Assembly: GCF_006345805.1 (NCBI RefSeq)
Contig: NW_021832430.1
Span: 248,001-312,000, forward strand
Direction of reading: 5' to 3'
DNA length: 64,000 nt
From: Octopus sinensis
Taxonomy: Eukaryota
Under the pieces are notes generated by a model that was given only the letters and a program-made list of their open reading frames with translations, was not told the origin of the DNA and searched no databases. Position 1 is the stretch's first letter. Every line of letters begins with the position of its first letter. Of this stretch, positions 10,048-60,001 are shown one piece after another. The position numbers were made by a program, and so were the translations under genes.

Positions 10048-10388
10048 TTAATGATTGTGCTAATGTGGTTTCAACTATCAAAGTGTTTTTCAAAATCTGT
10101 TAATTGCACACTCTATTCAAGGTCGTGCGTCAATTGGTGGTAAATTGTGTTAATGATTGTGCTAATGTGGTTTCAACTATCAAAGTGGTTTTTCAAAATC
10201 TGTTAATTGCACACTCTATTCAAAGTCGTGCAATCTGTGATTGCACATTCTGTCAAAGTCAAATATGATAATAGCTTTAATTTTGATTCATGGTCGATAA
10301 TGATATATGCATTTAATTTTAAAGAGAAAAACATAGGATGAATTGAATTTCTTTATCGCGAATAATTGGGAGTTCATCATTGTTAATA
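10048..10388 (+). repeat. 341-bp direct repeat, right flank of LINE
   Basis: Identical by eye to 5146-5486. Confidence 0.93.
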
Positions 10389-23749: not shown

Positions 23750-23813
23750 ATCTAGTGGAAGCATCCAACTTCAGTCTTCCCATATAAGACTTACTGACTT
23801 TAGAAAAGACCTC

Positions 23814-30565: not shown

Positions 30566-32576
30566 TAGGGCAACCTAAAAGTAATGATTAATTTTAAAAA
30601 GGTCCAAAAAAGGTTTTTATAAAAAGTTTGTTACGTCAATTTGGTCAATTTGTTAATTAAGTCAATTTTAAAATACGAATTTAATTAGAAAAATCGGCGT
30701 GACGTTTCTGTCGTATTGTAACAAATCTTTAACTAAATTATAGAGTACGTATGCCTAAAAATAAGCCTTCAGATTGTAAAAAAGCGAAAAATATTTATGA
30801 AAAATATCCCAAAGAATTTTCAATTACTCCGAATGGAATGCTTTTTTGTAAATTGTGTGAGTTACTCGTAACTTGCAAAAAACGTTTTTTTGTGAACAAA
30901 CACAGGGAAACACAGAAGCACTCTTCACCAACAATTATATCCACCAATACAAGATACAGTCCGACCTCTAAATGGGGCACTAAGTGCCTCAAATCAGAGG
31001 TTTCCCCAAAAAAGAGGTTTTTCAAAAAGCTCAATAAATAAAGAAAAAGAACATTATTTTTTAAAATAATCAGTTAATTTTTCTCCATATTTATATTTAT
31101 TTTTAATTCCTAACGACACTTTCTTTCTGAATTCATAAAAATCATGAAGAGAATCTGGAATCAAATCAAAGATGTTTGTCTCTAAGTTTTCCATCAAACT
31201 TTAAATTTGTGATATTGATGGTTCGCAGCTTATATTCTCATAGATATTTGGATCATTATCTTCTATTTCATCAATAACATTATTAAATATTTCTTCAGAT
31301 GATTCATTTATGCAACTCGAGTCTGATGGAGATTGTCGAAAAACCTTTTGCCAGCAGTTATAAATAATATCCGCAGATACATTATTCCAGGCATCTGAGA
31401 TTATTGTTACCACTTGCCGCAAATTTAATTTGGATAAAGACTCTATAAACAAATCCTGGTCGTCTTGAAAACATAAAAAATCAATTAGACAATTCAAATA
31501 ATTATCAGCAGATGCGGATTCGCCTGACAATGTTCGGAATTTTAATTCATGCCTCTGCTTGAATTTTTCTAACCATCCATTTGAAGCTTTAAACTTGTTT
31601 AAGCCCATTCTCGAAGAAACAGTTAGGGAAATTTTTTTTAAGAGTTCCAGAAACTGGAACATTCTGATCCCTTAGACGCTGAAAAATATCAATGACTTTT
31701 TCATCAAATCCGTTTTTATTTTCACTTAATGATGAGGAAAGAAATCCTTTTTTGATAAATGGAAGAATATTCTTTTTTATACAGAAAATAGTTCCCTTGC
31801 TAGTATTGTACATTATGGATAATCTCCTCTCAGAATGTTCTTTCTTTAAAAGATGATCAGCAATCTTCAACTTGGTTTCATAATTCAAAGGCATTACACA
31901 AGAAATTTGAAATGAAACGTGTCTTAAAATATTTATTTTTTAAATTGGTATAATTAATTTTATTTAATAAAAAATCAATGCCCCAAATAGAGATGTTAAA
32001 ATTAATTGATTTTTTATAATTTGGTTAAAAAATTTATAATGCCCCAAAACAGAGTTTTCCCCAAAAAAGAGGTGCCTCACCCCTGGAGGTGCGCCCCAAT
32101 TAGAGGTCGGACTGTAATTGAATATTTTTTTTCAAATTATTGTTTCAAAAATTTTGAATCATTTGTATTCTCAAACATTTCACTCTATAAATTGAGGAAT
32201 GAAGCAATTATCAACTTATTCGAAAATATTGGGCATTCACTTCCTTCAGAGTTTACTTAAGATAGTAGAAATTTTAGCTCTATAAAAGATATCAAAAATA
32301 ATTAATTTAATTTAAAATGAGCGAGACTGCACCTTCTCGGAGGTCTACATTGCCAGAGAAGAGGAGGAAGAAGGGAAGGAGGAGCGTGGAGTGCCATCCT
32401 CTGCTCACTTCGAAGGCTCTGGACTTAGTTAGAAAATCACTTAGTTAATTAGTTTCTTTTTTTACAAAATATTTGAAAATAAAGTTTTAAATAATATTTC
32501 TTAGGTCAATTTTTTAGTCAATTTTTAAAATTTTACGGTCAGTTAATTTTTTAGGTCAATAAAAATGTTTGCCCTA
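30566..32576 (+). mobile_element. Non-autonomous hAT (CGGBP1-like zinc finger) element, copy A
   Basis: TIR TAGGGCAA/TTGCCCTA, 8-bp TSD GTTATTAT, ORF MPKNK..LFCKLC..VNKHRETQKH; contains Tigger 1 and a ~110-bp REL retroelement 3' end (32320-32430). Confidence 0.88.
30957..32114 (-). mobile_element. Tigger/pogo element 1, internally deleted (only in copy A)
   Basis: TIR CAGTCCGACCTCTAA.TGGGGC, TA TSD, empty site AAGATAATTG at ~53325-53335. CENP-B HTH and FKASNGWLEKFKQRH are present; the DDE core is missing. Confidence 0.93.
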
Positions 32577-33128: not shown

Positions 33129-34347
33129 TTAGTAGACGTGTTTAGCCACAAAGAGGCTTTCATTGGCAGATGCATCGTCTGTGCCGGAATAAACACCCTG
33201 GGCAGCATCACTACAGGCCTAGGCGTGGTGACCATTAAACTATACATTGGCTCTTTTGATCAATTGAGCGACAGCTAGATCATTATTTGCACAATCTCCA
33301 TTCCACTTTCTAATAACGGAATGTTGCAGAGCTCGTCCATAAGAAAAGGACAAGGACCAGGGATACATTCTCCGATCTGTATTGGCCTGCTTATTGATCT
33401 CGTTAAGAATGTTGTAGAATCCGACTCGGAAAATCCACCCGAAAGGAAAACAATTCCTTTGAGTCATTAAAAGCTCAGAACCAGGGACTGCAGATGGAAC
33501 AGTTCTTCGCAATGTGCGAAGAGTTGCGGTGGCATTATCAGAAAACGAACTTTGAGGATTGGCCTGCATTCCTGAAGTGACCATGTTTGGTTTTAGTAAA
33601 GTTCCTTCCAAAAACACGTCCTGGTCATTCAGAGCTTTATAAACTCCCGCCAAAACCTAAAATAATAAAAACGAATGACCACCTTTGTAGTAACATATTC
33701 ACATCTTTCTAAACTGTGAGTACCGTCACAGAGAACTTCAGGCTCTACGATGGGGACGATGGCATTCTATGGATTCAGGAAAAATGAGACCAACTCGTTG
33801 ACATATTTTGGCATACGAGGCAAGTACATTGCTGTTTGTGACAATCGCTAGTTCCGACGTGTGTTTGGTCAGTAATTGTGAGGACACACCGCCATTTAGC
33901 AAAGTCCGCTCCAGCCTTTTTGTACTTGGCACATCTTTGGTCCAAATTGTCGAGCCCTGACAAATTCTAAATGCCATGTTGACCTTGAGTCGTTGTCTCC
34001 ACTCCATTGATCGAAACTACTCCCAAATCAACTTTAATTCCAGTAAGTATCCCGTTTTTACGTAAGACCTCCGGAAATGAGACTCCTTCGTCAGATGTTT
34101 GCCAGAAAGTTTCGTCGTACATGATCACTCCGGAAATGTAATTACTGAGAACTTCTGCAGACGAGAAGAGCATTTGACGATAAAGACGACGATTTTGTTC
34201 ATTATTTGTGCAATTTATTGCTGAAAACCGTTTTCCGATCGTCCCTGTGCTTTCATCAGCAGCCAAAATTCCTCGGCCGACTCTTGTGAGTTTGTTAGCG
34301 ATTTCTGAAAGTTGTTTTTGTTGGATTTCGGTTAAAAATGAATTCAT
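33129..34347 (-). CDS. ALDO: Fructose-bisphosphate aldolase class I, copy A (two apparent frameshifts, ~33860 and ~33413)
   Basis: [18 protein letters not shown]|[37 protein letters not shown]-terminal Y; five introns of 25-28 nt. Confidence 0.93.
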
Positions 34348-34564: not shown

Positions 34565-36160
34565 CAGTAAAACCTCTGGTGCTCGCCACCTCTGTTACTC
34601 GCCACCTCTATTGCTCGCCACATATTTTTCAAAAAATTAAAAATTTCTAGTAAATTTTGATAAATATTCTATTGCTCGCCATTTTCTAAATCTCGCCATT
34701 AATTTTTAAAAATATTTTTTTTGGTTAAACTATTTTTTATATAAAATATTTCAACCAGGCTGAATTTAACATGCGTAAGTGCTAAAGATTGTCTTTTAAT
34801 GGAAAACGTCGCATTCTTGCGTATATGGAGGAGAACAAAAGTCTCACGATGGACCGTATAGCAGTTGAGCAGTTGATCAGAAACAAGAAATTGATGCATT
34901 TACTTTTTTGATCTCTGCAAAGATTCAACAATATAATGCTGAAAACATTTATAACGCTGATGAAACTGGGATTTTTTACAAATCTATCCCTTCAAAAAGT
35001 GTTTGTCAGAAGGTTCGACATGGACATAAAATCCTTAAAGAACGGTTTAATTTTTATTTATTTTTTAGATTTTCTTTGTTGCTATGCTCAAATATGACTG
35101 GGACAGACAAAAAAATTCCACTTATGATTGGAAAGTTCCAGAAACCTCGCTGCTTTAAAAATTTTAAAGTCGAAAATTTTGTCGATTACTGTCATTCACC
35201 AAAAGCATGGATGACAAGTAAAATTTTTAACGAATGGCTTCTAACATAAGATAGGCATCTAAAAAAACGAAAAATTCTTTTAGTTGTGGATCGATGCCCA
35301 TCCCATAAACTTTACGCTGATTTACAGTCAATTGAAGTTCTTTACCTACCTTCGAAGACTACAACAATTCTACAACCAATGAATCAAGGAATCATTAGAT
35401 CCTTCAAAGGACATTTTAATAACTTAAATTTGAGTTTATGTTAGAAAAAATTGAAAATGGAGAAAATCCACTGGAAGCTCATAAAAAAATAACTTTAAAA
35501 GACGGTCTTCTTTTTACATATTTTGCCTGGAAAAAAGTAACGACCAAAAACAATTACAAATTGTTTCGGACATTCAAAATGGATCGAATGTGAAAATCAA
35601 TTCGAAAGACCAACTGTTGAAATTGATAATTATGATCAAATGGTAAATATCTTGAAAATATTGGACCCGGTGAATAAAGATGATTTTATTAATCATGAAT
35701 TTACCGAAATAGATGAAATTGAAGATTACCTTAATATTGCTGGAGATTCTTTTCCACACAAATATGACGATGAAGATACTCATAATGACGAATCTCATGT
35801 GACTTCAGAAGAGGCTTTGAAAATGTTGAAAAGAATAAAGTCATTCTTTTATCAAAATGAAAATTTTGATATAAATTCGTTGGAACTAATCGAAACCGTT
35901 ATTAAAAATATGGCTGAATTAAAAAAATTATTAAAGATTTTTTTAGTTAATTTTTTCCTTTTAATTCTTTCGATTCTCTTTGTTTCTTTGCTCAAATATG
36001 ACTTGGAAGGCTCACTTATGATCGGAAAGTATCGAAAACGGAGATGTTTTCAAAATTTCAATGTCAACAAATTTATTGATTATTTCTATTGCTCGCCAAA
36101 TTCTATTGCTCGCCATTTTTTCTTCGGTCCCGAAAATGGCGAGCACCAGAGGTTTTACTG
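34565..36160 (+). mobile_element. Tigger/pogo element 2, decayed (only in copy A), probable 24-nt intron 35045-35068
   Basis: TIR CAGTAAAACCTCTGGTGCTCGCCA, TA TSD, empty site at ~55995; IYNADETG, KAWMT, QPMNQG motifs. Confidence 0.93.
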
Positions 36161-37679
36161 TATTTTTTTAACTAGATGAAACAAGGCTGAATAAAAATGT
36201 TTTTTTACAAGACCAAAGTTTGTGTTAAGGGGCTTAATAAGTCAATTTTAATTAATTAACCTATTAATTAGTATTTCCTATTTGATTTGGTTATGAATTC
36301 TGACTATCATTATTACGTCATTAATCATAAAAGAGTTTGTAATCAGAAGAGTCATGTTTACAAAGCGAAGCTCCGAACTCTGAGTGCCACGTTACCAGAG
36401 TGGGATTGAGAAGAGTAATGTTTATGAGAAGTGCAGAGAACCCCGAGTTTAAATGCGTAAGAAATAATTTTATGCTACAAATACCGTATTCCGACAAGCT
36501 TTCCATTTTTTGCATTGACGACATTATAATCTTTGTGATTCATTTAGGATCTCTAGAGTTGCTCAAAACAAATTGTCAACAGTTTTCCTCCTCGAGTTGC
36601 AGTGAATATACTTTGTCTCGGAATTATTTCAATCTTAAATGAAAATAAATTTCAATCTTGAATAAAGCATAACATTTCTTCATTTCGATAAGAAGTATTT
36701 CCATTGAATGCAACCAATTATTTTAATAATTTCAATAAGGTGTTCTTCCTGAAATTGTGTTAAACGATGCATGATCTTTAATTTAATGTCATCATCCATT
36801 CGATGGACAAGGACGTTGAATGAACCGACTACTTATTATTATTTAAATCGAGAAGACCGTCAAAGTCAGAACAAAATCAGTTAGGTGATGCAGACATTCC
36901 CAATCATAACACGCATATTCTCGTGCCAGCATGCTTTGACGTGGAACACAGAACCCGTCGTCTTTAAAAGCGTTTCGAAAACAGTTGACTTTATACGGAG
37001 TTCAGTGAAACTGAACTTTGCAGTTGTATTAATAAAATACTGATAATTGTTAAAAAACTATATATGGGTTCCGTGAGGCAAATAAAATGTCTTTAGGCGG
37101 CCGCGATCTCTAAAAGGTTCGGAACTACCGATGTACAGAATTGATAAAAATGGCATTTTGAGAATAGTCAATTCAATGGCGTTGTCTGTTCAGCGACCTG
37201 TGGCATTTAATATTTACAGTTTTCAATTTTTTGTTCAATAAAAGAATTTTGATCAATTATTTTTGGTGTCGACCCAACGCGAATTATTTCCTTTGCTAAT
37301 TTTTCCCAAAAAAGTGTTCTACAAGCTAAAGGTTTGCAATAAATCTTTTAACCAGTCAGACTCCACTTCGGTGATGGCAAAAACATGTGACTGGTGAAGT
37401 AAATCTTTATCCTAGGAGCACTAGAGACCTCAGAAATCGCAAAAAGCTTGATCTTGCTTTATAAATGATATCAGGAATTAGGATACGATTTTTCACCGTA
37501 GTATACCACCTATTATTTCAGGAAATTTCTATTCAAAATAATAAGTTATAAAAAATATTTATTATTTTGTAGTTTAGTAATAATTTATAATAAACAATAA
37601 AAAATCAACGCGTGGATTATTCATTAGTTGGTGTTGATTTCTTAGTTTGTTGCAATATTTAAAAATCACTATAAATAGA

Positions 37680-38184: not shown

Positions 38185-39068
38185 TTTTTGTTCTTTTCTA
38201 ATAAATTTTGTGTTTTAGGGTAAATATTTGTTGCTTTTTGAACTATAATTATTTATTCAAGATTAGAATAACAAAGGTGTATAAAAGGGACTTTTTAGAT
38301 AAGATATCCTTACAAAATGGCTAGCAAATTGATGTGAGATTATACAGTGATTTTAAATTGGTTTTAACAATTATTTCTTTGAAATAATTAACACAAAATA
38401 ATATTAGGGAGTTTGGAACAAATTTTTTTATCCATAGTTTTTTGAACACTCTAAAATTTTAGCACACAAAGCTAGGGTCGAGCTATACTATTATTTCTTG
38501 TACTAAAATTCACTAAGGAGATCCACTTGTTTTTTTTCTATTTGCTCTCTGGGCCAACCAAATAGCCAGAAATCTCATTTCGATGGAATCATATTGGATG
38601 GTTGAACTTCTTTGATTTAATAATTTAATAATCTTTGACACTCGGATATTTGCTGAAGGTCGAAGATAGGAAAGTCCGATTATTAGCTTATACCAAATGA
38701 AAGGATTTGAATCTTTTCTCATACTGCTGGAATGTTTTCCCCTCATGTATTGCTTGACGACATCGTTAAGGGAGCACTTGATGTGGATGGATTTACTTTA
38801 ATGTTTGAACCTGCTGGGCTTGATTGCGGGAACAAGAAACTTGGAACCTTCATTAAAAAAAAACTAATTAATTTTCGAACCTTCGAAGTGAGCAGAGAAT
38901 AACACTCCACGCACCTCCTTCCCTTCTTCTTCCTTTTCTCTGGCACTATAGACTTCCGAGAAAGTGCAGTCCAGCGCCTCACGCTGACTAAATGTCAGGA
39001 AAGAACTGGATCGGCGAGCATCAAACGAGACACTCTCCAGAGTCCTCTTAAGAACAGTTGACTGCATA

Positions 39069-40999
39069 CAGTATAACCTCCATTTGGGGCAGACCTCTGG
39101 CTTGGGGAACCTCTATTTTTGGGGAAACCTCTATTTTTGGGGAAACCTCTATTTTTGGGGTAGTTTGAAAAGGATATAATTTTTATGCGGTAATTTCCAA
39201 ATTTAGAAATTACCGGAACCTCTAAGTGGGGCACAGGATTTTTAATTTATATACATATTTGCTATTAAAATTAAAATTAATTATATAAAATTTCATTTGG
39301 AAGCCTCGTGTAATTTTTGTATTCTTGTTGTTATGGCTCGTAAGCTTAGTCTTGAGTTAAAGATCAAAATTGCCAAGGAATTAAGTGAAAATAAACATCT
39401 TACTGAACGAGATATTGTAGATAAGTACAAAATTAGTAAAGGTTTTTTATTAATGTAAGTTTTTAGGCGCTGTGTCACGTATTAAAAAATTATCTCAATT
39501 TTTTTATACTGGGGCTGTTCAAACAGATTTTCCCAGAAATATTCAACGCTCTCCTCATACTTTATCCCAAAAATTGGATAAAATTGTTTTTGAGGCTTTC
39601 ACCAAGACAAGGGAAGAATTTATTCCTGTGTCCGGTCCTCTTTTAAAAAATATTGCTTCCAAAGTAGCAAGGATGTTGAATTATTCGGCGTTCAAAGGGT
39701 CCAATGGCTGGTTGGAAAAATTAAGAAAAGACATATGTTGTCATTTAAGACAATTAGTGGAGAGAAAAACTCTTCCGATGTTTCTTCGCTTGATATGTTT
39801 TTTTTCCAAGTATGATGAATACGTAAAAGAATATGGTCTTCAAAATATTTTTAATTGCGACGAAACTGGGTTATATATTAAAAGGATACCTTCAAAATCA
39901 TTTGTAAGTTCGGATGAAGATTGTTTCGGAATTAAAAGAGTAAAGAAAAATTCACTATTCTTTTGTCGGTCAGTGCTTGTGGCGAAAAATTGAAGCCATT
40001 GTTAGTAGGAAAATATAAATCCCCACGTTGTATGAAAAACTTTAACCCTGAAGAACATGGAGTTTCATATTCATCATCTAAAAACAGTTGGATGACATCA
40101 GAAATATTTATTACATGGCTCACCATTACAAATGAACAAATGATTACGCAAAAGAGAAAAATGTTTTTGTTACTTGATAACGCAAGCTGTCACAAATATA
40201 TCCATCTTTCCAACATTGAATTGTTTTTTCTCCCAAAAAATACAACCTCATTAATTCAACCGTTAGACATGGGTATTATTAAATCTTTCAAGTCCAATTA
40301 TCTTAACGCTTTATTGGATTTTACTCTTTATTTTGAGGACGTTGAGTTACAAATTGTTAATTTAAAAAAAATAAATCTTCGTCATGTCATAATAATTGTT
40401 GGAAAAACATGGCAAAATTTAAATCCTGAAACAATAACGAATTGTTGGGAAACAATTAATAACTGTCGGCAACAGATTCCTAGTTCAAATTTTTTAGTTA
40501 ACAGTGAGAAAGAAAATTTGGACACGATAATTGCAGACGTAATTGCTGAAAATGAAGAAGAAAATAATGATGAGTCAATATATGACCAAACTGAATGCAA
40601 CTGTTCACACTTGGACACGATAACAGCAATGAATAACCTTGAAGAGAATATTCACCGTTTGTTTCCCGATGCGTTAAAAGACTATTACAATTTCAGAAAA
40701 ATATTGGGCATACATATGAAGAAATCTGCAACAGGAAACAAAATAACAGATTATTTTCGTGTATAATAGAATAAAAATTTTTTTCTACTTGAAAAATACT
40801 CTAATTATCAATAAAATTAGTGGAAAACATGTTTAAATGTTCTTAAAAATACTTTATTTATTTATAAATTAATGAAAAATATGCTAAAACTATTAAAATT
40901 TTTATAAAAATAAAGAAAATTTCAGACCTCCATTTTTGGGGAAACCTCTATTTTTGGGGCAATTTTTCAAAATTGATGCCCCAAATGGAGGTTATACTG
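39069..40999 (+). mobile_element. Tigger/pogo element 3, possibly autonomous (only in copy A)
   Basis: TIR CAGTATAACCTCCATTTGGGGCA, TA TSD, empty site GCATATAAGC at ~58924-58933; 18-bp subterminal repeats GGGGAAACCTCTATTTTT. Confidence 0.95.
39333..40766 (+). CDS. Tigger transposase (CENP-B HTH + DDD) with 25-nt intron 39442-39466
   Basis: MARKLSLELKIKI..YKISK|GAVSRIKK; GSNGWL; FNCDETG, LLDNASCH, QPLDMG. The three remaining frameshifts are all in homopolymers. Confidence 0.82.
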
Positions 41000-44959: not shown

Positions 44960-46018
44960 CAAACTCGACTAGACATGAAAGATAAAATAATTAATTAACT
45001 AATTAACTTTCCTTTTCCATATTAGTTTGCTCCGCCAAGTTTACTCTCGGAATCCTCTTCCCGCTATCTGTTCCCACTTCGGAGTTGTTTCCTTCATCGG
45101 CGGAAACTACAGAATCTCGCCGTCTCTTCACCGATTTCCGTCCTTCGTCAAATGAGTTACCTGAGGTAGACATATTTTCGAAGCCAAATTTGTGTTCTAC
45201 TATCATGCTTTCCATTGTTTTTTTTCAAACCAACAGTCTGGATGTATGCTTGCACACTTTCTTTGATTTTAAGAAGGTCCATATATTTTCTGAAGAATGT
45301 AGAGACTATCCCATCCCACGTGAGGACAATCGGTACAATCTTTACCTTAGCCTTGTGAATTAATTGTAATTCACTGGCTAGAATGTCGTATTTATGCATT
45401 TTTTCCACTTCCACCGATTTCAAATTATCTATCGAGGTAACACCCACTTCAATGATCCATATCAAATTTTCCTTCTTGTCATACAGGAATATATCAGGCT
45501 TGTTATATTGTATTTTTAGTTCAGTTGGAATTGTAGTATCGACCCGAATTTCCGCAGAGCTATTCGACATTATACACTGCACGGAGTGGTTTTTCAGTCT
45601 CTTGGACTTCTTCATTCCAATCTCCGACACAAGTGCATGTGAACACACCTCACAATCTCGTTATGCCTTCTGGTATAATCTGAATTTAGCATTCTACTGC
45701 ATCGCGTCGCAAGATGGTCCACGGTTTTAGGCGAGGATTTACAATGTGGGCATTTTTCATCAGAGTTTCTGAAAAAGACGTTTCTGTCTTGAAGAAAAGA
45801 GAACATTGCCTCAGATTTAGGAGATATATTCCCTTTCTTTAGCCATGTTGAAGATGTTGGGATATCAAAAATATTATTCTCAAGCGACTCAATAGCTTCG
45901 AATGCAACCTTTTCTTTTTAATACTAAGCAACAGTGACTCTATCTGCAAGTCACGTAGTGATTTAGCAATCTCATCGAGTGTGGTTGTTCCATATTTACA
46001 ATGCAGGAATTCTGTGAT
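44960..46018 (-). mobile_element. 5'-truncated REL-type retrotransposon at the junction between duplication copies
   Basis: CPHC..TVDHLATRC..DYTRRHNE, EIRVDT..YNKPDIF..IEVG..EK.HKYD, IVLTWDG; absent after the end of copy B. Confidence 0.88.
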
Positions 46019-46457
46019 TGAGGTGGTAATTTTGGACAACAAAATTTTTTTGGCAAAAAACTTAATAAATATGTAGGGGGTCCGCGAAATTTTTCATTTA
46101 CTCACAAGGGGTCCGCGGACAAAAAAGGTTGAGAACCACTGATCTAGTGGAAGCATCCAACTTCAGTCTTTCCATATAAGACTTACTGACTTTAGAAAAG
46201 ACCTCCTAATGCCGCAAGACCTGTCCGCGAGATTCAAGGAACCCCGACAACCAGCGCCTTAGACACGGAGAAACCTCACACGTGGCGAGGGAGGTCCGGA
46301 AGCCGTCGTGCCACCACACAAAGGCCGCTGTGGTGCATCGATTGATCAATTTGGACTTCACCTTTTTTCTTGCCGAAAAAGCGCTGGTAGATTCCCGAGG
46401 CATTCAGCTCTCAACGACGTTTGAAATTGAGTTGTACCTAATTTCATATTATTTTAT

Positions 46458-47196
46458 GTGCTCTCGGCAAACCTTGACCAACACCGCCTGGCATGCCTTC
46501 GTGCGGCATCCGCCCCTCACTCTGGCAGCTGGATGAATGCTCTTCCTCTTTCCAGCATCGGGACGTGGCTAGACGATGCTGCCATACGCATCGGAGTGGC
46601 TCACCGACTCGGCCTGGATGTTTGTGCAAAACACCGCTGCAGATGCGGTGAGGACGTTGACGAAAAGGGAATGCACCCACTTTCCTGCAAGAGGAGCGCA
46701 GGCAGGGAACACAGACACAAGGCCCTCATTCGTGCCTCCTCGAACCGGTCGGACTCGATCGGGGAATGGCAAAAGGCCTGACGGGATGACAATATTCCCG
46801 TACTCGTCGGGGAAGGCCCTCGTATGGGATGTTACCGTTGTGGATACCTTTTCAAATCGAGGATCCATTCTTCCGCCGCAAACCCTTGTTCGGCTGCAAA
46901 CCACGCCGAAAAGATCAAAATACAAAAATATTCTTCGCTCGCGAACCGCTACCGCGTTACGCCAATCGCCCTGGAGACCGCTGGAACCGCGGGAAAGGAG
47001 ACTGACTCGTTCCTCAACGAGGTCGGGCGTCCATTGGGAGGAGGCTCAAGAACACGAGAGAGGGTCTCTGGTTCTGCCAGCGCATCGGCCTGGCCATTGT
47101 TTGGGGCAACGCACACTGCGTCTTCGCCGCTGGGACTTACGATTTTCGTTTTTTTTGACTTTCGTTTATTACAAAAAAAAATTAAAAAAAAAAAAA
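46458..47196 (+). mobile_element. CRE-clade retrotransposon 3' region, copy B
   Basis: Duplicate of 24066-24805. Confidence 0.85.
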
Positions 47197-47489
47197 TTTG
47201 TGTAAAAATTCCAAAATCCACTTTTTAAGATTAATAAGAAAAAAAGCAAAACTGCTCAGAAACTCTACATGCCCTCCAACCAACAGGAACGATCGTCCAA
47301 ACGTTCAAAAAAGAACGTCAAGTCACGCTCAAGCAATGCAGAGTATAGAACATCATCACAGCTTTGTGTAAGAACAATTTCGATGAACGTTCTTTCAAGG
47401 CAAACTTTAGAAATGATCCCTAGAAGTATAGCCTTAATTTTCACAAAAATGCAAAATTTTAAATCACATAGTTCTTTTAGTTAAAATAT

Positions 47490-49429
47490 ATAAATTATTT
47501 TGCCGAGTTAATAATTGATAATTAATTTTTCAGCTTAATAATAAACATTTTAAATATAAATATAGATATTAAGAAATATTTTAAATAAATCTTTTTCTCA
47601 CAGATTATTCAAATAATATCTAAAAAATTCTGAATTATTCATTTTAAAAACACAGAAAGCTAAATGATAAGATATATACATAAGATTAAAATCTCTGAAA
47701 ATCAATTAGATGTTGCAGATCACCACCTAGTCTAATAAATTAATGTACTGGAAGACATAATGGTGGATTATAAACAATTAGGCGTCATTTATTTTCATCA
47801 TAAAAGTGATATTAAAGGTGTCTAAAATACAGAAGTTATAGCCATAACAAATTATCTAAATAAAATTAACGAAAATTCCTTTTTATGACGTTTGGTTGAA
47901 CTCATAGCCAGACACTTTAGCAATTTGAGGATACTTCATTACTCTCACAATTCGATGGACAGCCTCGTTCACTGAAAAATATGTGTAAAAAGTCCGAAAT
48001 TCTCTCAGCATTGCATCGACTTAATAACAACAGGGCAGCGGGTTATGATGATATTTGCGGAGAGTTGTTGAAATACGCACGGACCAAGCTTCCAGAAATG
48101 ATAACTCTTATATTCAATGTATTCAGGAATCATTGTCCAATTGAACTTGCGATGGGAGTTATACTTTCTCTGCAAAAACCTGGCGATTGAAAATCTCAGG
48201 CAACTGACCACGTTGCGAAAAACCCTGTCGATTATAACATTGAATCGTATATTAAAATCAGTTGATAAATACCTGTCGCCAAGTCAAAGCGAATTCAGAC
48301 TGGGAAGATCAACCGCTGATATAGTATGGAGTCATCGGTGGCTTACTGCCATATGTCAGAAGTACAGGAAAACGATGCACATTTTGGGAGTTGAGCTATC
48401 AAAAGCGTTCGACAGTATCTGTCTAGATAAACTACTGCGAGTTCTCGAGGATATTGTTGATGAAGACTCCTTGAGGATTGTGCGTTTTCTGCTGGCTGAT
48501 ACGAGCCTCGTAGTGAAAATGGAGAGAAACTATTCGGATAAATGGACCTCCGGGATTGGTACTCCGCAAAGGGACTCTCTTTCCCCAGTCCTCTTTGTAA
48601 TCTATTTGGAAGCCGCGTTATGAGATGTCAGAAAGGAATTGTATCACGTAAAATTTAAGTCTTGAATAATCATTTTGTGGAACTAATATAGGCCAACGCC
48701 ATTGATTTTATATCTGAGGATGGGGAAATTCCAAGAGCTGTAATAGACAAGGCTACAACAGTTTTGAAGAGGTGGTCCTGAAGATCAATTTGAAAAAGAC
48801 AGGCATAACTTCGATTTCTGCGTCCGTCGACTCGGATTGACGAGAAGTGGAGGTTTAGTAAAATGCTTGGGTCGCTTTTGAGCGATGCTGAGGACATTGC
48901 CCGTAGAAAAATGTTGGCGTCGTGTGCACTAAATAAGATGTGGAGTATCTGGACACGCCAAAGACTTATCTCTCTAAATCTTCGGACACACTTGTATAAT
49001 GTGTTCGTACTACCAATCCTATTATGCAACTCGGGAACATGGGGAACATCGAAAACGGACCTTTACGCTTTTCATAGAAAGCAAATGAGAAAAAAAACGG
49101 GTATCAAATGGCCACAGACCATCAAAAACGACACTTTCTACAAATTATGTGAATGCAAGCCGATTAGCAAGGAAGTTACTACCTCATGCTGTCATGAGAA
49201 TGGAAAAATGATTTCTTGCAATCAAATCATGGAAGAATACTTTTCTAATCAAGGAATTGGATTTCGGAGTCGGCCAAGACGCACGTTTCTCCTCTGCCTG
49301 AGGGATGATTACGCGAGAATTGGCAACCAACTTGAAAATGGTGACAATCTTGAGGACATTCACAAACGCACGAGAAACAAGGCTGAATGGAAAAGACTGA
49401 CTGGGAGGATATTTGAGACTACGACATGA
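47490..49429 (+). mobile_element. Decayed RTE-like LINE, copy B
   Basis: Duplicate of 25100-27044. Confidence 0.85.
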
Positions 49430-50442
49430 GCAAAACCTTAGGCACATAGGTGCTTATGTTAGCTTGATTTGTCCAGTCTTGAAGCGCTTGGTTTGCTGAA
49501 AAAAGTAATTTAGAATGGCTCGCCAATAGATAAGAATTGGTCTATCGAGTATCTTGTTGTGCGATCAACAAGTTTGTCATGCTCATGTCCCCAATTGAGT
49601 TCTGGATTTTTGAGAGCAATTTTTAGAGCTTTTTTTCGTCCAAAAGGACCAAACTCTTCTCCCCGTTTATCATTTGCCCAACGGAAGAAAGACTAAGGTG
49701 AATGAATTGCGAGGCTGTCTAGTTGGCAGAGATACGTCAAATTACTATTGGCAACGTTCTCGAAAAACGGGCTGCTAAAGTCGCATCACGGAGGCCATCA
49801 CAGAGACTCAGCTGCGAAGTCTCGCCACTTCAGATTGATGTAAGAATTCCAAATGAATGTGAAGCTGCAGTGCATGCAACCAGAGAATTCTTTTCGCAAA
49901 AAAAGAAACTCAAATGTTTTAGATATAAAACTGGATATTAAGAATGCATTCAACAGCCTGAGAAGAGACGTGATTCTCGAAGCCTGCTTTTCTGATCATT
50001 TCAAGCAAATCTTTCTCTTTGGATGCGAGTTTTATACCAATTACCAGATTATACTTTAAAATGATTTTGCACATTCCACCTAATCCAGCAAATCTCAAAC
50101 ACTTGTGAGACTTTTCACTAAACAGAGGAAATACTAAGAGTATTTCGATTCCTTCATGGAAAAAAGATACGTCGCTATTATAAAGGCCTTTGAATCTATA
50201 AATAATGAAATAACAGTTGTATTGGCCAAAAAAATAAAAGAATATTTGAGCTCAAAAGTCGGATAGCTATTAAGAATAATATCACGGTGTAAAAAGTAAA
50301 TCTATCAGTGGAAAATCAGTCCAATTTCAAAAAATAAACTTTCATAGACACGAGAAAACACAAAAATATACTAATTAACTAAATATATAAAATAAGGAAA
50401 AAGTATTGAAATTAGTCAAAGAACAAGTAAAGACAGAAAGGT

Positions 50443-50830
50443 CTAATTTTGCTCGACTTGTTTGGCCAACAAATCACTTTCCCTGTAAAAATAGTATTCC
50501 TAGACATATAAAAGACACACTACGTTGTCCCCAAGCATTATTTTGCTACCACCGTACTCTGGGATGATGACAGAATCCCCCACCTTGACCGACATTGCCT
50601 GTCTGACACCATTCTAATATATTTAAGTCGACTTATGTTGTACCACGATACTGCCGGGTCCAGCAGCCACAATTGTCCCTTCTATGACCTTTTCTTGAGC
50701 TTTGGCTGGAATGAGAATCCCAGTCTTTGAAACTGTTTCCTTAGCTGCTCTCTGAACAAGAATTCTATCAAATAGCGGAACGATTTTTTGAGCAATGGAC
50801 TGGAATATTAATACAAAGTGGAGAAACCAT
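50443..50830 (-). CDS. HSPE1: HSP10, copy B (intact)
   Basis: Same exon structure and length as copy A. Confidence 0.95.
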
Positions 50831-51095
50831 CAGAGAAAACGTGACAGTACTTTTATTACTTTTTTAAATGTAATAACTAATTAAAATATATTAATAACAA
50901 AAATTTTCAATTTATTTTAACATAATTATCTAAAACATTTATACAAAAATAATAGAATTTTATAATATATTTCGTCGAAAATTAAAAAATCTAACCATTA
51001 ATTTTTTTAAAAACTAAGATTTTAATAATTAAATTTAAATAAGTTATATAAAAAACTATTAATATATGAATAAATTCAAACCCACAAGTGTTCTG

Positions 51096-51773
51096 ATGTG
51101 TGCTGATATTCTACCTGGGAACACAATATACATAAGCAACCTAAACGACAAGATAAAGAAGCTGGGTTAAGTTTAAATTAATATTTCCAGAACTTAAAGA
51201 CCAGCTATACCACGCCTTTGCCCATTTGGCCACATTGTCGAAATAGTGGCCCTAAAGACTAATCAAATGCGGGGACAAGCATTTGTCATATTTAAGGAAG
51301 TGAACAACGCCTCACTTGCCCTCCGGTCTATGATGGATAATTCTACATTCTACGGCAAGCCATGGTAAAGGATTGTCCTCATCTTCCAGCGCATAGAGTA
51401 CGCCAAGACTGAATCCCAGATCATAACTAGAATGAAGACATTATATGCCGAAAGATGTGAAAGACAGAAGGAGGAATTGCAGTCAAAGTCGAAAAGAGTT
51501 CGAATGGATGTCTTTGAGAACGTGGAATGTCCTCCTGATGCCTCTTCTGTGCTTTTTGTGGAGAATATTCCAAGTGACGCCACTGAACATGATCTCAACA
51601 TTCTTTTTAAAAAGTTTTCTGGGTTTAAGGAACTTCGGTACACAAGTGCTCGGCCGGAAGTGTCTTTTGTGGAGTACGAGAATGAAACATGTGCTACTGC
51701 TGCTCTTCAGTCTCTTCAAAACTTTAAACTTTCCCCAACTCATTTTCTGGCAATTTCATACGCCAAAGTTTAA
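51096..51773 (+). CDS. SNRPB2: SNF/U2B'', copy B, with apparent lesions in exon 2
   Basis: Duplicate of A, with one C missing near 51221 and a garbled segment at 51331-51362. Confidence 0.8.
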
Positions 51774-51867
51774 TTTTTCTTGTTTTTTTGATTATGATTT
51801 TTTATTAAAGAAAATTTAAATAAATTGAATTTTGATAAATTAATATTTTATTGGATGATGTGAGACG

Positions 51868-52835
51868 ATGAAACCACTAAAGCTTTAAATGATTTTATTT
51901 CACAGTTAAAGTGTTCCTCGTGGTGATTTTCTTTTCTTATTACTACCAGCTCGTCCTCTACTTGTGAATTATTTAGCCATTCGAATCGTCCAACTCTTTT
52001 CTGCCAGTTAGCAGTTTTAAATAATATTAAAGAAAGTGCTTGGAAGAGTGTGGCGATCCCCTTCTGTCTTCTTCTATTATAAATCGGAAAAACCTTACTT
52101 CACTCGCAAACTTAGCCAATCAACTTGTGGACAAGCTCAAATCCCTTAAAGACAGTCCCTCCAAAGTCGTGGTGGCCCAGTGGCTACTCCATGCGACAAC
52201 TACGGGACCTGAGGGGGATGACCTTTTCCTACGATGTGTGACGGCATCCACCATGTCCTCACAAGTCTCCCACTTGGTTGTCCAGACAGACGAGAATGGG
52301 CGATGTTTGAGGACATTTAAGTACATGACCGCTCTTCTCAGAGGTCTGTGGATTGTGTCTCATCAATGTACGAACATGAATGTATTTCAGGGCTATCCGA
52401 CTCGTTTGACTGTCAATCCTTACTGGACTGTGCCCCTTATGAAGTGGTGGGACACTCCAATAGCGAAGTGTCGTATATTCCTACCAAGGCGAGGACCAGT
52501 CAAGTCTGTAGCTGTTTGATAATGAGTAGTCTCCTCCTCTTTTTGATGGGATTTCTGTCTTTTTTGCATCAAAGACACGCATGCCCCGGCGGAAAATTAT
52601 TTCATTGGTGGAGTTGGGTGGAGGAAAAGTCCTAAGAAGTCTTCTTTCTGAATATGAGAAGAGCAGACCCTTCCATGCTGCTGCTTCTGGACTGATAGCA
52701 AATTGTCCGGTTGTAGCCGTGTCAGATGAGTGGGCTGGAGCCGTCCTCATTGGAATGAATTTAGAGAAAAATTGTTTGGTTGCTTCTGAGAATTGGATAT
52801 TTGATTGTATTTCATCGTATTGCCTTGTTGAATGA
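51868..52835 (+). CDS. BARD1/BRCA1-like, copy B, with apparent frameshifts
   Basis: Duplicate of A, with -1 after the ATG, -2 near 52179 and -1 near 52229. Confidence 0.72.
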
Positions 52836-52895
52836 ATGGCTTATTCTGTCTTCTTGTTTTTTGGTATTACTTAAATAATGTAGTTTCGTTATTAT

Positions 52896-53782
52896 TAGGG
52901 CAACATATCAATAAAGTCAATTTCAATTCAGAGTTAAACTTTAGTCTAAAATAATGATTAATTTAAAAAATATCCAAAAAAGATTTTTATAAAAAGTTTG
53001 TTACGTCAATTTGGTCAATTTTTGGATTTTTTAGGTCAATTTTTTAATTAAGTCAATTTTAAAATACGAATTTAATTATAAAAATCGTATTGTAACAAAT
53101 CTTTAACTAAATTATAGACTACGTATGCCTAAAAATAAGCCTTCAGATTGTAAAAAAGCGAAAAATATTTGTGAAAAATATCCCAAAGAATTTTCAATTA
53201 CTCCGAATGGAATGCTTTTTTGTAAATTGTGTGAGTTACCCGTAACTTGCAAAAAACATTTTTTTGTGAACAAACACAGGGAAACACAGAAGCACTCTTC
53301 ACCAACAATTACATCCACAAATACAAGATAATTGAATTTTTTTCAAATTATTGTTTCAAAAATTTTGAATCATTTGTATTCTCAAACATTTCACTCTATA
53401 AATTGAGGAATGAAGCAATTATCAACTTATTCGAAAATATTGGGCATCCACTTCCTTCAGAGTTTACTTAAGATAGTAGAAATTTTAGCCCAATAAAAGA
53501 TATCAAAAATAATTAATTTAATTTAAAATGAGCGAGACTGCACCTTCTCGGAGGTCTACATTGCCAGAGAAGAGGAGGAAGAAGGGAAGGAGGAGCATGG
53601 AGTGCCATCGTCTGCTCACTTCGAAGGCTCTGGACTTGGAAAATTACTTAGTTAATTAGTTTCTTTTTTTACAAAATATTTGAAAATAAAGTTTTAAATA
53701 ATATTCCGTAGGTCAATTTTTCAGTCAATTTTTAAAATTTTACGGTCAGTTAATTTTTTAGGTCAATAAAATGTTTGCCCTA
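52896..53782 (+). mobile_element. Non-autonomous hAT element, copy B (no Tigger)
   Basis: Same TIR and GTTATTAT TSD as copy A. Confidence 0.88.
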
Positions 53783-54561
53783 GTTATTATTCTTGATGAG
53801 ATACGTCAAGGAATTGATTTCGTTCAGTTTTCAAGAAATAAAGCAATAGACCTCGAAGTAGAAGCAGTTTAGCGTTTCTTACTGACTAAATGTTAAAAAG
53901 GACTGGGAGAGCATTAAACGAGATACTCTCTAGAGTCCTTTTAAAAACAGTTGACTGCATATAAGCCTGTAGAGGTTTATCTACATCTAAATATCTTAAG
54001 TAACGCTTGTGGTATTCCGAGACCACTCCATCCCATATCATTTTACACGGAATGAACCCACGTCATAACTGCTCACTGAACAAGTACAATTTCTTCTTAT
54101 TACTTGAAAACACGTGAACGCAATTCTCTTTAAGTACTCTTCGGACAATAAGTTCAATTTCATCATAGTCACTCGGGTTGAATTCGATTAGTCCGACGTA
54201 GTAGTTGAGCGTACTTGTTAAAGACGTGGAACAAGTTCTATACATTGAGGCGAGATGCCTATATTATTGCTGCATTGCTACGCACATCTTCCACTAGGCA
54301 CTTTCTAGTTTCGAGCGTGATTAATAAAGCTGGTTTTTCAACCACATCAAGATACTTATATCTTTAGTGTTTCTCCGGGACTTTGACTAAATGACCACAT
54401 ACGTGATCCAGTCGAACGGTCTTGAAACCTTTCAGATTTTCCCAATAAAATAATAATTGATTACATAACCACAAAATTTAATGGGACAGACACACCCTGC
54501 TTAATTGTAAGTAGAAAATTAGAAAGATTTATTAAATTTGATTAGTTGAACAATAAGCAAA

Positions 54562-55780
54562 TTAGTAGACGTGTTTAGCCACAAAGAGGCTTTCATTGGC
54601 AGATGCATCGTCTGTGCCAGAATAAACACCCTGGGAAGCATCACTACAGGCCTAGGCGTAGTGACCATTAAACTATACATTGGCTCTTTTGATCAATTGA
54701 GCGACAGCTAGATCATTATTTGCACAATCTCCATTCCACTTTCTAATAACGGAATGTTGCAGAGCTCGTCCATAAGAAAAGGACAAGGACCAGGGATACA
54801 TTCTCCGATCTGTATTGGCCTGCTTATTGATCTCGTTAAGAATGTTTGTAGAATCCGACTCGGAAAATCCACCCGAAAGGAAAACAATTCCTTTGAGTCA
54901 TTAAAAGCTCAGAACCAGGGACTGCAGATGGAACAGTTCTTCGCAATGTGCGAAGAGTTGCGGTGGCATTATCAGAAAACGAACTTTGAGGATTGGCCTG
55001 CATTCCTGAAGTGACCATGTTTGGTTTTAGTAAAGTTCCTTCCAAAAACACGTCCTGGTCATTCAGAGCTTTATAAACTCCCGCCAAAACCTAAAATAAT
55101 AAAAACGAATGACCACCTTTGTAGTAACATATTCACATCTTTCTAAACTGTGAGTACCGTCACAGAGAACTTCAGGCTCTACGATGGGGACGATGGCATT
55201 CTATGGATTCAGGAAAAATGAGACCAACTCGTTGACATATTTTGGCATACGAGGCAAGTACATTGCTGTTTGTGACAATCGCTAGTTCCGACGGTGTTTG
55301 GTCAGTAATTGTGAGGACACACCGCCATTTAGCAAAGTCCGCTCCAGCCTTTTTGTACTTGGCACATCTTTGGTCCAAATTGTCGAGCCCTGACAAATTC
55401 TAAATGCCATGTTGACCTTGAGTCGTTGTCTCCACTCCATTGATCGAAACTACTCCCAAATCAACTTTAATTCCAGTAAGTATCCCGTTTTTACGTAAGA
55501 CCTCCGGAAATGAGACTCCTTCGTCAGATGTTTGCCAGAAAGTTTCGTCGTACATGATCACTCCGGAGATGTAATTACTGAGAACTTCTCCAGACGAGAA
55601 GAGCATTTGACGATAAAGACGACGATTTTGTTCATTATTTGTGCAATTTATTGCTGAAAACCGTTTTCCGATCGTCCCTGTGCTTTCATCAGCAGCCAAA
55701 ATTCCTCGGCCGACTCTTGTGAGTTTGTTAGCGATTTCTGAAAGTTGTTTTTGTTGGATTTCGGTTAAAAATGAATTCAT
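54562..55780 (-). CDS. ALDO: Fructose-bisphosphate aldolase, copy B (intact)
   Basis: Open frame after removing five introns (27, 28, 26, 25, 27 nt). Confidence 0.95.
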
Positions 55781-57522
55781 ATAGTTTCTTAAAAGGTGAT
55801 TATAAATGTTAAATTGATAATAGTTAGATAATCAGTTACCTATGATATGCTGACGCAGTAGAATAAAATTTATTAATTTTTTAAGGTTAGGCTTAAAAAT
55901 TATATCACATTATAATAACATATTTATTACCTATTATAAATAGCTGAAGATTTTATTTATTTTTTTAGAAAAAATGGGTATTCATAACACACGATATATT
56001 TTTTTTAACTAGATGAAACAAGGCTGAAAAAAAATGTTTTTTTACAAGACCAAAGTTTGTGTTAAGGGGCTTAATAAGTCAATTTTAATTAATTAACCTA
56101 TTAATTAGTATTTCCTATTTGATTTGGTTATGAATTCTGACTATCATTATTACGTCATTAATCATAAAAGAGTTTGTAATCAGAAGAGTCATGTTTACAA
56201 AGCGAAGCTCCGAACTCTGAGTGCCACGTTACCAGAGTGGGATTGAGAAGAGTAATGTTTATGAGAAGTGCAGAGAACCCCGAGTTTAAATGCGTAAGAA
56301 ATAATTTTATGCTACAAATACCGTATTCCGACAAGCTTTCCATTTTTTGCATTGACGACATTATAATCTTTGTGATTCATTTAGGATCTCTAGAGTTGCT
56401 CAAAACAAATTGTCAACAGTTTTCCTCCTCGAGTTGCAGTGAATATACTTTGTCTCGGGAATTATTTCAATCTTAAATGAAAATAAATTTCAATCTTGAA
56501 TAAAGCATAACATTTCTTCATTTCGATAAGAAGTATTTCCATTGAATGCAACCAATTATTTTAATAATTTCAATAAGGTGTTCTTCCTGAAATTGTGTTA
56601 AACGATCCATGATCTTTAATTTAATGTCATCATCCATTCGATGGACAAGGACGTTGAATGAACCTACTACTTATTATTATTTAAATCGAGAAGACCGTCA
56701 AAGCCAGAACAAAATCAGTTAGGTGATGCAGACATTCCCAATCATAACACGCATATTCTCGTGCCAGCATGCTTTGACGTGGAACACAGAACCCGTCGTC
56801 TTTAAAAGCGTTTCGAAAACAGTTGACTTTATACGGAGTTCAGTGAAACTGAACTTTGCAGTTGTATTAATAAAATACTGATAATTGTTAAAAACTATAT
56901 ATGGGTTCCGTGAGGCAAATAAAATGTCTTTAGGCGGCCGCGATCTCTAAAAGGTTCGGAACTACCGATGTACAGAATTGATAAAAATGGCATTTTGAGA
57001 ATAGTCAATTCAATGGCGTTGTCTGTTCAGCGACCTGTGGCATTTAATATTTACAGTTTTCAATTTTTTGTTCAATAAAAGAATTTTGATCAATTATTTT
57101 TGGTGTCGACCCAACGCGAATTATTTCCTTTGCTAATTTTTCCCAAAAAAGTTGTTCTACAAGCTAAAGGTTTGCAATAAATCTTTTAACCAGTCAGACT
57201 CCACTTCGGTGATGGCAAAAACATGTGACTGGTGAAGTAAATCTTTATCCTAGGAGCACTAGAGACCTCAGAAATCGCAAAAAGCTTGATCTTGCCTTTA
57301 TAAATGATATCAGGAATTAGGATACGATTTTTCACCGTAGTATACCACCTATTATTTCAGGAAATTTCTATTTCAAAATAATAAGTTATAAAAAATATTT
57401 ATTATTTTGTAGTTTAGTAATAATTTATAATAAAACAATAAAAAAATCAACGCGTGGATTATTCATTAGTTGGTGTTTGATTTCTTAGTTTGTTGCAATA
57501 TTTAAAAATCACTATAAATAGA

Positions 57523-58027
57523 ATGGAAGAGAATCCAGTTAACGTTATTACTCCAGGAAGGGTGGTTATAATGCTTGCTGGGCGATATGCTGGCAAAAAA
57601 GGCATCGTAATGCAGGTACCTATTATATATTATTAGGCCTAGAATATAAACGAGACTAAAAATAGAAAATATCCTCAATGTCTTGTTGTTGGACTGGCAA
57701 AAAATCCCCGTAGAATACTATCTGGAATGTCCTCAAATAAAATACTTAAAAGGACCAGACTATCCACATTCGTTAAGCTGACAAATATCAACCACGTCCT
57801 CACAACAAGGTTTATATACATTTATTTTATATATTTAGATATTGTGTCACTCCTTCCATTACAACTGATGATGTTAATGTAGATAAGTATAAAGATCTTG
57901 CAGGAAGAAAGCAGATGAGGCAATTGGCACGAACTGCATTGGAGTCACAGTTATGCGTATTTGTATATTACTCTGTAGTTATCGAAAAGGCGAACATAAG
58001 TGGTTCTTTAAGCGCATCGATATGTGA
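57523..58027 (+). CDS. RPL27: RPL27, copy B (intact)
   Basis: Canonical GT at the first donor; frame open after three introns. Confidence 0.93.
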
Positions 58028-60001
58028 TTTTTGTTCTTTTCTAATAAATTTTGTGTTTTTGGGTAAATATTTGTTGCTTTTTGAACTATAATTATTTATT
58101 CAAGATTAGAATAACAAAGGTGTATAAAAGGGACTTTTTAGATAAGATATCCTTACAAAATGGCTAGCAAATTGATGTGAGATTATACAGTGATTTTAAA
58201 TTGGTTTTAACAATTATTTCTTTGAAATAATTAACACAAAATAATATTAGGGAGTTTGGAACAAATTTTTTTATCCATAGTTTTTTGAACACTCTAAAAT
58301 TTTAGCACACAAAGCTAGGGTCGAGCTATACTATTATTTCTTGTACTAAAATTCACTAAGGAGATCCACTTGTTTTTTTCTATTTGCTCTCTGGGCCAAC
58401 CAAATAGCCAGAAATCTCATTTCGATGGAATCATATTGGATGGTTGAACTTCTTTGATTTAATAATTTAATAATCTTTGACACTCGGATATTTGCTGAAG
58501 GTCGAAGATAGGAAAGTCCGATTATTAGCTTTTACCAAATGAAAGGATTTGAATCTTTTCAGGTGTTTGAATCTTTTCTCATACTGCTGGAATGTTTTCC
58601 CCTCATGTATTGCTTGACGACATCGTTAAGGGAGCACTTGATGTGGATGGATTTACTTTAATGTTTGAACCTGCTGGGCTTGATTGCGGGAACAAGAAAC
58701 TTGGAACCTTCATTAAAAAAAAACTAATTAATTTTCGAACCTTCGAAGTGAGCAGAGAATAACACTCCACGCACCTCCTTCCCTTCTTCTTCCTCTTCTC
58801 TGGCACTATAGACTTCCGAGAAAGTGCAGTCCAGCGCCTCACGCTGACTAAATGTCAGGAAAGAACTGGATCGGCGAGCATCAAACGAGACACTCTCCAG
58901 AGTCCTCTTAAGAACAGTTGACTGCATATAAGCATATAGAGACTTATCTACACCCAGCTGTCTTAAGTACCCCTTGTGGTATTTCGTGACTATTCCATCC
59001 CATGTCATCACATACGGAATGACATGGACTTTGCTCTGTTACATCAGCCCTAGCTTGTTTGCAAGGAGGTAATACTTCCTACTTTTCTTCACTTCCACTA
59101 TTTGCAAACGGTCTAGGCACGCGATGCTAACTTCCACGATAACAATCTCCCCAGTAACCTTATCACGGACCAAAATATCGGGTTTGTTGTGCAGAAACGT
59201 GGAATAACTATATTTACTTTCAATTGTGAAAACTTATATAAAATACCATCTACGCAGTTTTCTGTTGTGACTCTGAGATATGTCTCTTTTTAGTGCGCTA
59301 GACCAACAGGCTGTTCAAAAGAGTTTCACTTAAAATTCCTATTTAAGGATGAGTTACGACTATTCCATTTTTAAAAAATTCTCTAGGCTCGGTCTACGTT
59401 TTGTTATTTAAGATAGAACAAACTCCATCTTTATAGGATTGAATAAAATAAGTTCCAAATACTCTATCATAGGAGTTCACTGCCCCGAATCGTCCAAAGT
59501 GATAAATGGTTGGCTTTATCGACTTATCTATTTTACCTTTTTTAACACTTTTAGAAGGTTCTGTTTTTGTTCGTATGTGAGCTTTTATTCGAATGTCAGA
59601 CTAAATTTACTCAATTTATAGATTGAAAATTTCAACGAAAAGATTTCCGGTATTCGTCGAAGTGAAAGAAGACTGCTAAAATCATCATTCGACAAGTGGA
59701 CAAAGGAAAAGTAATTGTAGAATCTGACGAGTGACAAATCCATTCCAGACAAAAAAGTAGAGTTTTCGTCAAAATAAATCATAGAAAAAATATATTTAAA
59801 ACAATTATTATTTCATAGAAACGGGCTATTTTTTTAGATTTTCTTAGCATCTTGCAGTCGTAGAAACTAAGTAAACTTGGAAGGTACAAACAATCTTTCA
59901 TCACCAAAAATCCAAGTTGGCTGTAATTATTAAATTGAAATTTAAGTATTAATTATACTCTTTATTTGATTAAAAGAGACAACAATTAATAGATTTTAAA
60001 T

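Follow-up and report, generated by a model that had tools for sequence, protein, structure and literature searches.

A truncated retrotransposon between two tandem copies of a gene block in dicyemid DNA: a possible duplication by aborted insertion

A block of genes stands twice in a stretch of DNA assembled with Octopus sinensis, and a piece of a retrotransposon lies between the two copies. The question is whether the second copy exists in life and, if so, whether the retrotransposon made it. The window analysed here is the whole 64,000-nucleotide stretch (contig NW_021832430.1, positions 248,001 to 312,000). Because exon 1 of its aldolase gene is 93% identical to the aldolase of Dicyema acuticephalum and the next matches reach at most about 64%, the window is the DNA of a dicyemid, a tiny cephalopod parasite, within the 2.7-Gb assembly. 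It was presumably sequenced together with its host.

Self-comparison of the window gave the order X-A-RT-B-Y, in which units A and B are copies of the block in direct orientation, RT is the retrotransposon piece (the bridge), and X and Y are the outer flanks. The features are as follows.

23252-23752: hAT-like repeat across the X/A border, of which B has just the right part (46019-46141)
23627-44959: unit A, first copy of the block, 21.3 kb including three copy-specific insertions
30955-32114: A-only insertion, pogo/Tigger-type, 1160 bp
34566-36162: A-only insertion, pogo/Tigger-type, 1597 bp
39067-40999: A-only insertion, pogo/Tigger-type, 1933 bp
44960-46020, minus strand: bridge, the 3' 1.06 kb of a 3.55-kb restriction-like-endonuclease (RLE) non-LTR retrotransposon; natural 3' end without poly(A) on the 44960 side, truncated 5' end at 46018-46020
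45157-45660, minus strand: endonuclease-domain frame of the bridge, with zinc knuckle region and PD-D/E motif and with a frameshift in the assembled sequence; PF06616 below cut-off
46019-46020: microhomology TG, 2 nt, common to the element and the start of unit B
46019-62895: unit B, second copy of the block, 16.9 kb
50626-50829, minus strand: Cpn10 exon, B copy
51369-51773, plus strand: RRM protein exon, B copy (A copy 29015-29419)
52031-52832, plus strand: BRCT-domain gene exons, B copy
53832-54058: B-only insertion, 227 bp
54565-55780, minus strand: fructose-bisphosphate aldolase, B copy (A copy 33132-34347)
60323-61219, minus strand: LIM-homeodomain gene exons, B copy

The layout given in the preliminary description, X-[unit A]-RT(3' end)-[unit B]-Y, was borne out by the self-comparison and by the alignment of A with B. 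The alignment also confirmed that the 3' end of the element abuts the last shared base of A and that the element is absent at both outer flanks. The bridge adjoins TTTGGTATAA, the last bases of unit A, at 44959, and 1059 bases separate the two units. X (before A) and Y (after B) are mutually unrelated, and neither holds a piece of the bridge element. Over 16,531 aligned bases, A and B differ by 189 substitutions (118 transitions and 71 transversions) and by 55 indels, mostly of single bases. The truncated 5' end had been placed in the middle of a hAT element at the first shared base of B. B indeed begins inside a repeat whose body continues in X, with an overlap of two nucleotides, but the hAT label is our assumption from the end of this repeat, which resembles a hAT terminal repeat. 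Probes of 3.0 and 1.8 kb taken from the unit had full-length matches at only two places in the assembly, both of them here, and no empty-site allele was found elsewhere in the assembly. The first 2 kb of the unit are present three times because a second tandem duplication overlaps unit A. Five genes were identified in the unit, namely those for Cpn10, an RRM protein, a BRCT protein, aldolase and a LIM-homeodomain protein. A sixth was not found there, and what had been called a six-gene block stands as one with at least five genes, present twice.

An assembly search with the bridge gave at least 40 scored matches, including at least 19 other copies at 98-100% identity. Full-length copies of the family are 3.55 kb long, and translation of a natural copy gave a single ORF with reverse transcriptase, then zinc knuckle, then PD-(D/E)xK endonuclease. 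RVT_1 and weak PF06616 matches were obtained in relatives, and the named relatives of the endonuclease part of the bridge were cephalopod-labelled database proteins (59-93% identity) and microsporidian proteins (39-42%). The bridge is an RLE-type retrotransposon, R4/NeSL-like by domains and identity. The microsporidian R4/Dong/NeSL-like RLE elements have the same single ORF with reverse transcriptase and C-terminal zinc knuckle and restriction-like endonuclease, whereas the present host is a dicyemid. Fifteen other near-identical copies carry on upstream, all in the same element sequence, past the point at which the window copy gives way to B. Therefore, the 5' truncation of the window copy is genuine. 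A fixed-length non-autonomous element was ruled out, since other copies extend upstream. At the other end, the window copy has the natural ragged end of the family plus seven extra terminal bases, for which the window alone matches in the assembly. The nearest relatives of the bridge differ by one substitution in 1020 (about 0.1%), and the element is young. The 3' ends of the family are ragged, with two alternative tails and with poly(A) in only some copies. Poly(A) is absent at the window copy, and the targets of the family are merely AT-rich.

The survey of the RLE family covered 18 other copies, which represent 17 distinct loci; one copy without a 3' end was left out. A duplication of 10-17 bp was found at 13 of the 17 loci (at two of them by eye), and the remaining four were ambiguous or had none. 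At the window copy a short target-site duplication (TSD) is absent. A long duplication was absent from all 17 other loci over the 7.6-30 kb inspected downstream (1.5 kb at a single locus), and the window copy stands out in the RLE family as an outlier. One apparent 1.8-kb duplication, at the RLE copy on C10621, was rejected, as it consists of two separate Helitrons with a duplication of about 16 bp beyond the inserted one. In a sister subfamily (76% identity, 12 loci), whose 5' ends are undefined and whose reference copy is internally deleted, no 3' flank recurred upstream within 4-7 kb. One RLE insertion occurs with the same flanks on two contigs, C12469 and C9300; the parasite part of the assembly holds uncollapsed haplotypes or a segmental duplication.

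The divergence of the copies was compared with the age of the element. A and B diverge by 1.08-1.14% and by four insertions, and the bridge carries one substitution in 1020. If the copies had been identical at insertion, 1.14% would predict about 5.8 private substitutions in the bridge. The Poisson p for the single one seen is about 0.02 at 1.14% and 0.06 at 0.9%. The divergence is at the allelic level and matches the heterozygosity of 1.24% reported for Dicyema japonicum, whose genome is given as 49% repeats (PMC6736024). Short-read contigs from three runs of one sample were consulted, and only run X1 covers the stretch. At 24 of the 32 listed sites where X1 differs from B, it carries the base of A; at the other 8, some of them within repeats, its alleles are found in neither A nor B. 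In the left half of B, the majority allele resembles A at 15 of 16 sites, and in its right half at no more than 8 of 38, the second count being partly from per-contig totals. Therefore, the sequence adjoining the junction on both sides is a minority haplotype, and the outer parts are the common haplotype. Likewise, the private alleles of B cluster in its junction-near half, and those of A in its own junction-near half. This pattern fits a bridge to the homologous chromosome, a later reshuffling of a duplication by crossover, or a reintegrated circle. For the first 2 kb of the unit there are three distinct versions, with 20, 5 and 4 private sites. Two identical true copies assembled as a mosaic of alleles were rejected, because majority alleles would then lie near the junction and the short-read contigs show the opposite. 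Since the copies differ like alleles and the element is only about 0.1% from its relatives, a plain sister-chromatid TSD is disfavoured; a homolog bridge or later allelic exchange fits better. The bridge geometry, the 3' end and the microhomology agree with the giant target-site duplication proposed before; the difference between the copies does not.

We consider a bridge made by retrotransposition to be the best single explanation. The truncated young element joins two 17-21 kb copies of the block and may well have made the duplication during an aborted insertion. In this mechanism, which is suggested by the geometry of the locus and by the L1 models described in PMC7058536 and PMC11702581, its endonuclease would nick at the A/Y border. 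Reverse transcription would be primed at the nick and would copy 1.06 kb of the RNA. The usual second nick 10-17 bp away would be skipped, and the free cDNA end would anneal through TG where the block begins. From there, repair synthesis by the host would copy the entire block. Given the allele-like differences between A and B, it is likely either that the cDNA end joined the homolog, in an unequal exchange splinted by cDNA, or that parts of the two copies were exchanged with other alleles afterwards. Among the chromosomes sampled, about half to three quarters would have the duplication. In support of this mechanism, the natural 3' end lies at one junction and the truncated 5' end with a 2-nt microhomology at the other, and the same junction geometry is reported for 5'-truncated L1 insertions (PMC11702581). 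The lack of a short duplication here, as opposed to 10-17 bp at 13 of the 17 other loci, is also in its favour. Further support comes from a second non-LTR family of this genome, the APE-type LINE described below, which has long flanking duplications at nine loci and of which a 5'-truncated piece stands at the junction of an older duplication of about 4.5 kb on this contig. Counting against it are the absence of a long duplication at all 17 of those loci, the missing poly(A), the seven terminal bases with no other match in the assembly, and hAT and Helitron halves that bridge similar duplications nearby. Moreover, about 28% of the units is copy-specific, and a random breakpoint would land in such an insertion about half the time.

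The last two points lead to the first alternative, which we regard as unlikely but which survives best. Here the duplication is real but was not made by retrotransposition: a full element already stood at A/Y on one haplotype, and a later microhomology-mediated unequal exchange broke inside it and joined it to the beginning of the block on the other homolog. The allele-like divergence of the copies is directly accounted for in this way. Its other evidence comes from the 498 kb of contig, which carry four large tandem duplications including the present one. The second of them, of about 13 kb, overlaps unit A and has the following parts.

199-944, plus strand: truncated young hAT piece bridging the second tandem duplication, with a 2-nt microhomology on the left and a natural terminal repeat on the right
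945-25602: second copy of this neighbouring duplication; the first copy starts 13.7 kb before the window and ends at window position 200 (contig 234290-273602)

The third is a 4.5-kb duplication (C8901:146316-155959, 0.7% divergence) with cytidine-deaminase-like and coiled-coil genes, bridged by 556 bp of a Helitron-like end, a label given by resemblance. The fourth is an older duplication of about 4.5 kb (C8901:186714-217053, 2.6%), whose 8-kb gap has a 5'-truncated piece of an APE-type LINE at its beginning and the 5' part of an RLE element at its end; it may be a 3' transduction with a scar of about 4.5 kb. A transposon piece therefore stands at the junction in all four, and in three of them the copies diverge by 0.6-1.2%. 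The bridges belong to different transposon classes, as expected if an insertion was there beforehand. Because hAT and Helitron pieces bridge two of the other three, retrotransposition is not the sole process behind the large duplications. With 28% copy-specific sequence in the four large units, the chance of a bridge would be 48% per duplication. On the same rough estimate, however, four bridges out of four are expected in only about 5% of cases. A prior insertion also needs two events in a short time, given an element one substitution from its relatives, and it leaves unexplained the full-length LINEs with exact long duplications at both ends (1436 bp on C9339, 341 bp in the window). The four bridges would reflect either first-joined ends rescued by long-range repair, or exchanges in polymorphic insertions, or joins of haplotypes at repeats.

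The third of these possibilities is the assembly artefact which the preliminary description had itself named, in which two haplotype contigs ending in a repeat are joined end to start and the block is single-copy in life. The allele-level difference between A and B would be expected from it. The second allele of the unit was not found elsewhere in the assembly, four such structures on one contig are suspicious, and false duplications are described as common in assemblies (10.1101/2021.04.09.438957). Among the short-read pieces listed (24 of about 1320), no contig crosses either junction. A 4181-bp short-read contig runs unbroken from B into Y, although a frequent branch from A to the element should split it. 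Such assemblers, however, often prune the links that lead out of unique DNA to a repeat with a depth of 1800x, which may account for the missing junction, and a contig is also unbroken across the site of the 1597-bp insertion of A. Read depth, which had been suggested as a check, speaks against the artefact. Two joined haplotypes predict a unit/flank depth ratio of 1.0 and a fixed duplication 2.0. Seven X1 contigs over the unit have depths of 92-125 (weighted 115), and three over the Y flank have depths of 69-76 (weighted 73). The ratio is 1.57, from seven versus three contigs of one sample in which contig depth is not the same as copy number. A GC-matched pair of contigs gave 113.5 for the unit versus 73.5 for the flank. 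There were only three controls; one is a dehydrogenase gene, single-copy among the loci examined, one lies in a stretch skipped by another contig, and dicyemid coverage is reported to be uneven (PMC6543705). The depth of about 1.6x favours a genuine extra copy. Furthermore, there are no N bases in 498 kb of contig, 2-nt microhomologies are found at the junctions of two bridges, the three versions of the first 2 kb exceed what two haplotypes can supply, and X1 has alleles foreign to both A and B at 8 of the 32 listed sites, some in repeats. A misjoin by overlap was not available because the overlap at the element/B junction is just two bases. The joining of two haplotypes is made less probable by the depth but keeps some weight, and the tandem copy is probably real in life. 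Beside the duplication, two pieces of the Y flank, of 5.5 kb and 1 kb, are missing from a 69x short-read contig; these gaps are large insertion polymorphisms between haplotypes directly adjoining it.

A block copy that was closed into a circle by the element piece and excised, and that then either returned to the chromosome through one crossover or was placed in the contig by the assembler, is very unlikely: extra depth would be expected, the junction-near alleles of A and B do make one permuted minority-haplotype unit, and dicyemids are reported to diminish, circularise and selectively or unevenly amplify DNA during development, forming extrachromosomal circles, but the reported circles are mostly under 2 kb (PMC6543705), the haplotype switch is a mixed zone of about 4 kb and not a single point, and two crossovers with common alleles yield the identical pattern.

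Another family in the window bears on the same question. It is an APE-type LINE that often has long flanking duplications.

5146-5486: 341-bp duplication, copy 1, 100% identical to copy 2
5487-10047, plus strand: APE-type LINE between the 341-bp copies, with a histone H2B-like 5' leader
10048-10388: 341-bp duplication, copy 2

Because a paralogous Helitron has the 341-bp segment once, this case is a true insertion scar. The survey covered 33 copies, that is, the window copy and 32 others. Eleven copies at nine loci have direct duplications that start at the 3' junction and end at the 5' junction, with lengths of about 173, 195, 341, 440-486, 487, 571, 1083, 1436 and 1816 bp. The duplication pairs diverge by 0-1.5%, except for the 173-bp case, which corresponds to the beginning of histone H4 and may be a leader that the element captured. 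Another four cases are probable: one of 401 bp is interrupted by an insertion, one of 3.2 kb begins irregularly, and two run off the ends of their contigs. The other 16 copies have neither a long duplication in the flank examined (0.3-20 kb) nor a short one; several of them sit in head-to-tail arrays, and two copies are not judgeable. The 1436-bp duplication (contig C9339 near 29662, one substitution) contains a complete histone H2A reading frame, and this locus would be a gene duplication by insertion scar. The 341-bp case had been read as a hint of retrotransposition-driven duplication across the genome, and this holds for the APE family.

L1-bridged tandem duplication in human tumours, which the preliminary description had named as precedent, was found in the literature (Rodriguez-Martin et al. 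2020, PMC7058536). As in the present case, a retrotransposon piece lies where one copy ends and the next begins, joining the two, and the model there is that the cDNA end invades a break on the sister chromatid. The tumour case is somatic, spans 22.6 Mb and involves an APE-type element with an endonuclease motif (PMC7058536), whereas the dicyemid case is RLE-type, 17-21 kb long and apparently polymorphic in a natural population, with allele-like copies. For scars of hundreds to thousands of bases, as in the APE family, the counterpart is L1 in nucleotide-excision-repair (NER) mutant cell lines. There, long duplications make up 57-91% of events, with a median of 1495 bp and lengths of up to at least 6.8 kb, and the authors propose a distal unrelated nick; in HeLa at most 10% exceed 100 bp (PMC5223499). 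The difference is that a natural genome with apparent XPA- and XPC-like genes, and not cell culture, is concerned here. NER loss as the cause of the long duplications was rejected, in view of a putative XPA gene (XPA_C match on C9497) and a putative XPC gene (BHD_3 match on C7755), both on small contigs of parasite type. Such matches occur also on large scaffolds, and an XPD-family control was found too.

Long duplications have been described elsewhere as well. ZfL2-2 in chicken cells gave a long TSD (1228 bp) in 1 of 25 events (PMC2666801), and HERV-K sites with TSDs of 111-250 bp are isolated loci (PMC5488345). In both they are rare, whereas in the dicyemid APE family they are a common outcome. 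In listings of the open-access literature, no natural genome with a LINE family commonly making kilobase duplications was found. R9 of Adineta vaga, as Gladyshev and Arkhipova are said to have described in 2009, makes a 126-bp duplication of fixed length at one rDNA site. The dicyemid RLE family differs in that it is not site-specific and usually makes 10-17 bp, and its long case is 100 times longer. The present duplication works like an L1-bridged tandem duplication and like the long scars of L1. It is not filed as a plain giant TSD because one private substitution was seen where identical copies predict about 5.8.

In this genome, genes are probably copied by mobile elements much more frequently than in the animals studied so far. 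We tentatively propose that one-ended integration in this dicyemid is routinely finished by long-range repair synthesis, duplicating 0.2-20 kb with whole genes (H2A, aldolase, LIM-homeobox). If true, this would be a standing, heritable engine of gene duplication in a reduced animal genome, of a kind so far seen mainly in tumours and repair-deficient cells. It would also add retrotransposon-driven gene duplication at the DNA level, promoter and introns included. The joining of the second end of non-LTR insertions remains debated, and the APE (long) and RLE (10-17 bp) families are a built-in comparison, which bears on second nicks made by the element versus those made by the host. Were the 17-kb case a false tandem duplication, the shorter duplications would likely stand, and these can be spanned by single long reads.

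Further observations concern the ends of the APE family. Its 5' leaders are histone-derived (window 5487-5600), with an H3 tail in most copies and the H2B-like sequence in the window copy. In several copies, an H2A, H4 or H2B gene follows closely after the end of the element. If such a site were duplicated over a long stretch, a histone start would come to lie before the element, which may be a route of leader acquisition. Contigs C12598 and C12459 carry scar-element-scar-element-scar arrays, a form that recombination between long scars, with tandem amplification of the element, would produce. In a copy of an 86% subfamily on contig C11711, the 5' leader resembles what we take to be a piece of 18S rRNA.
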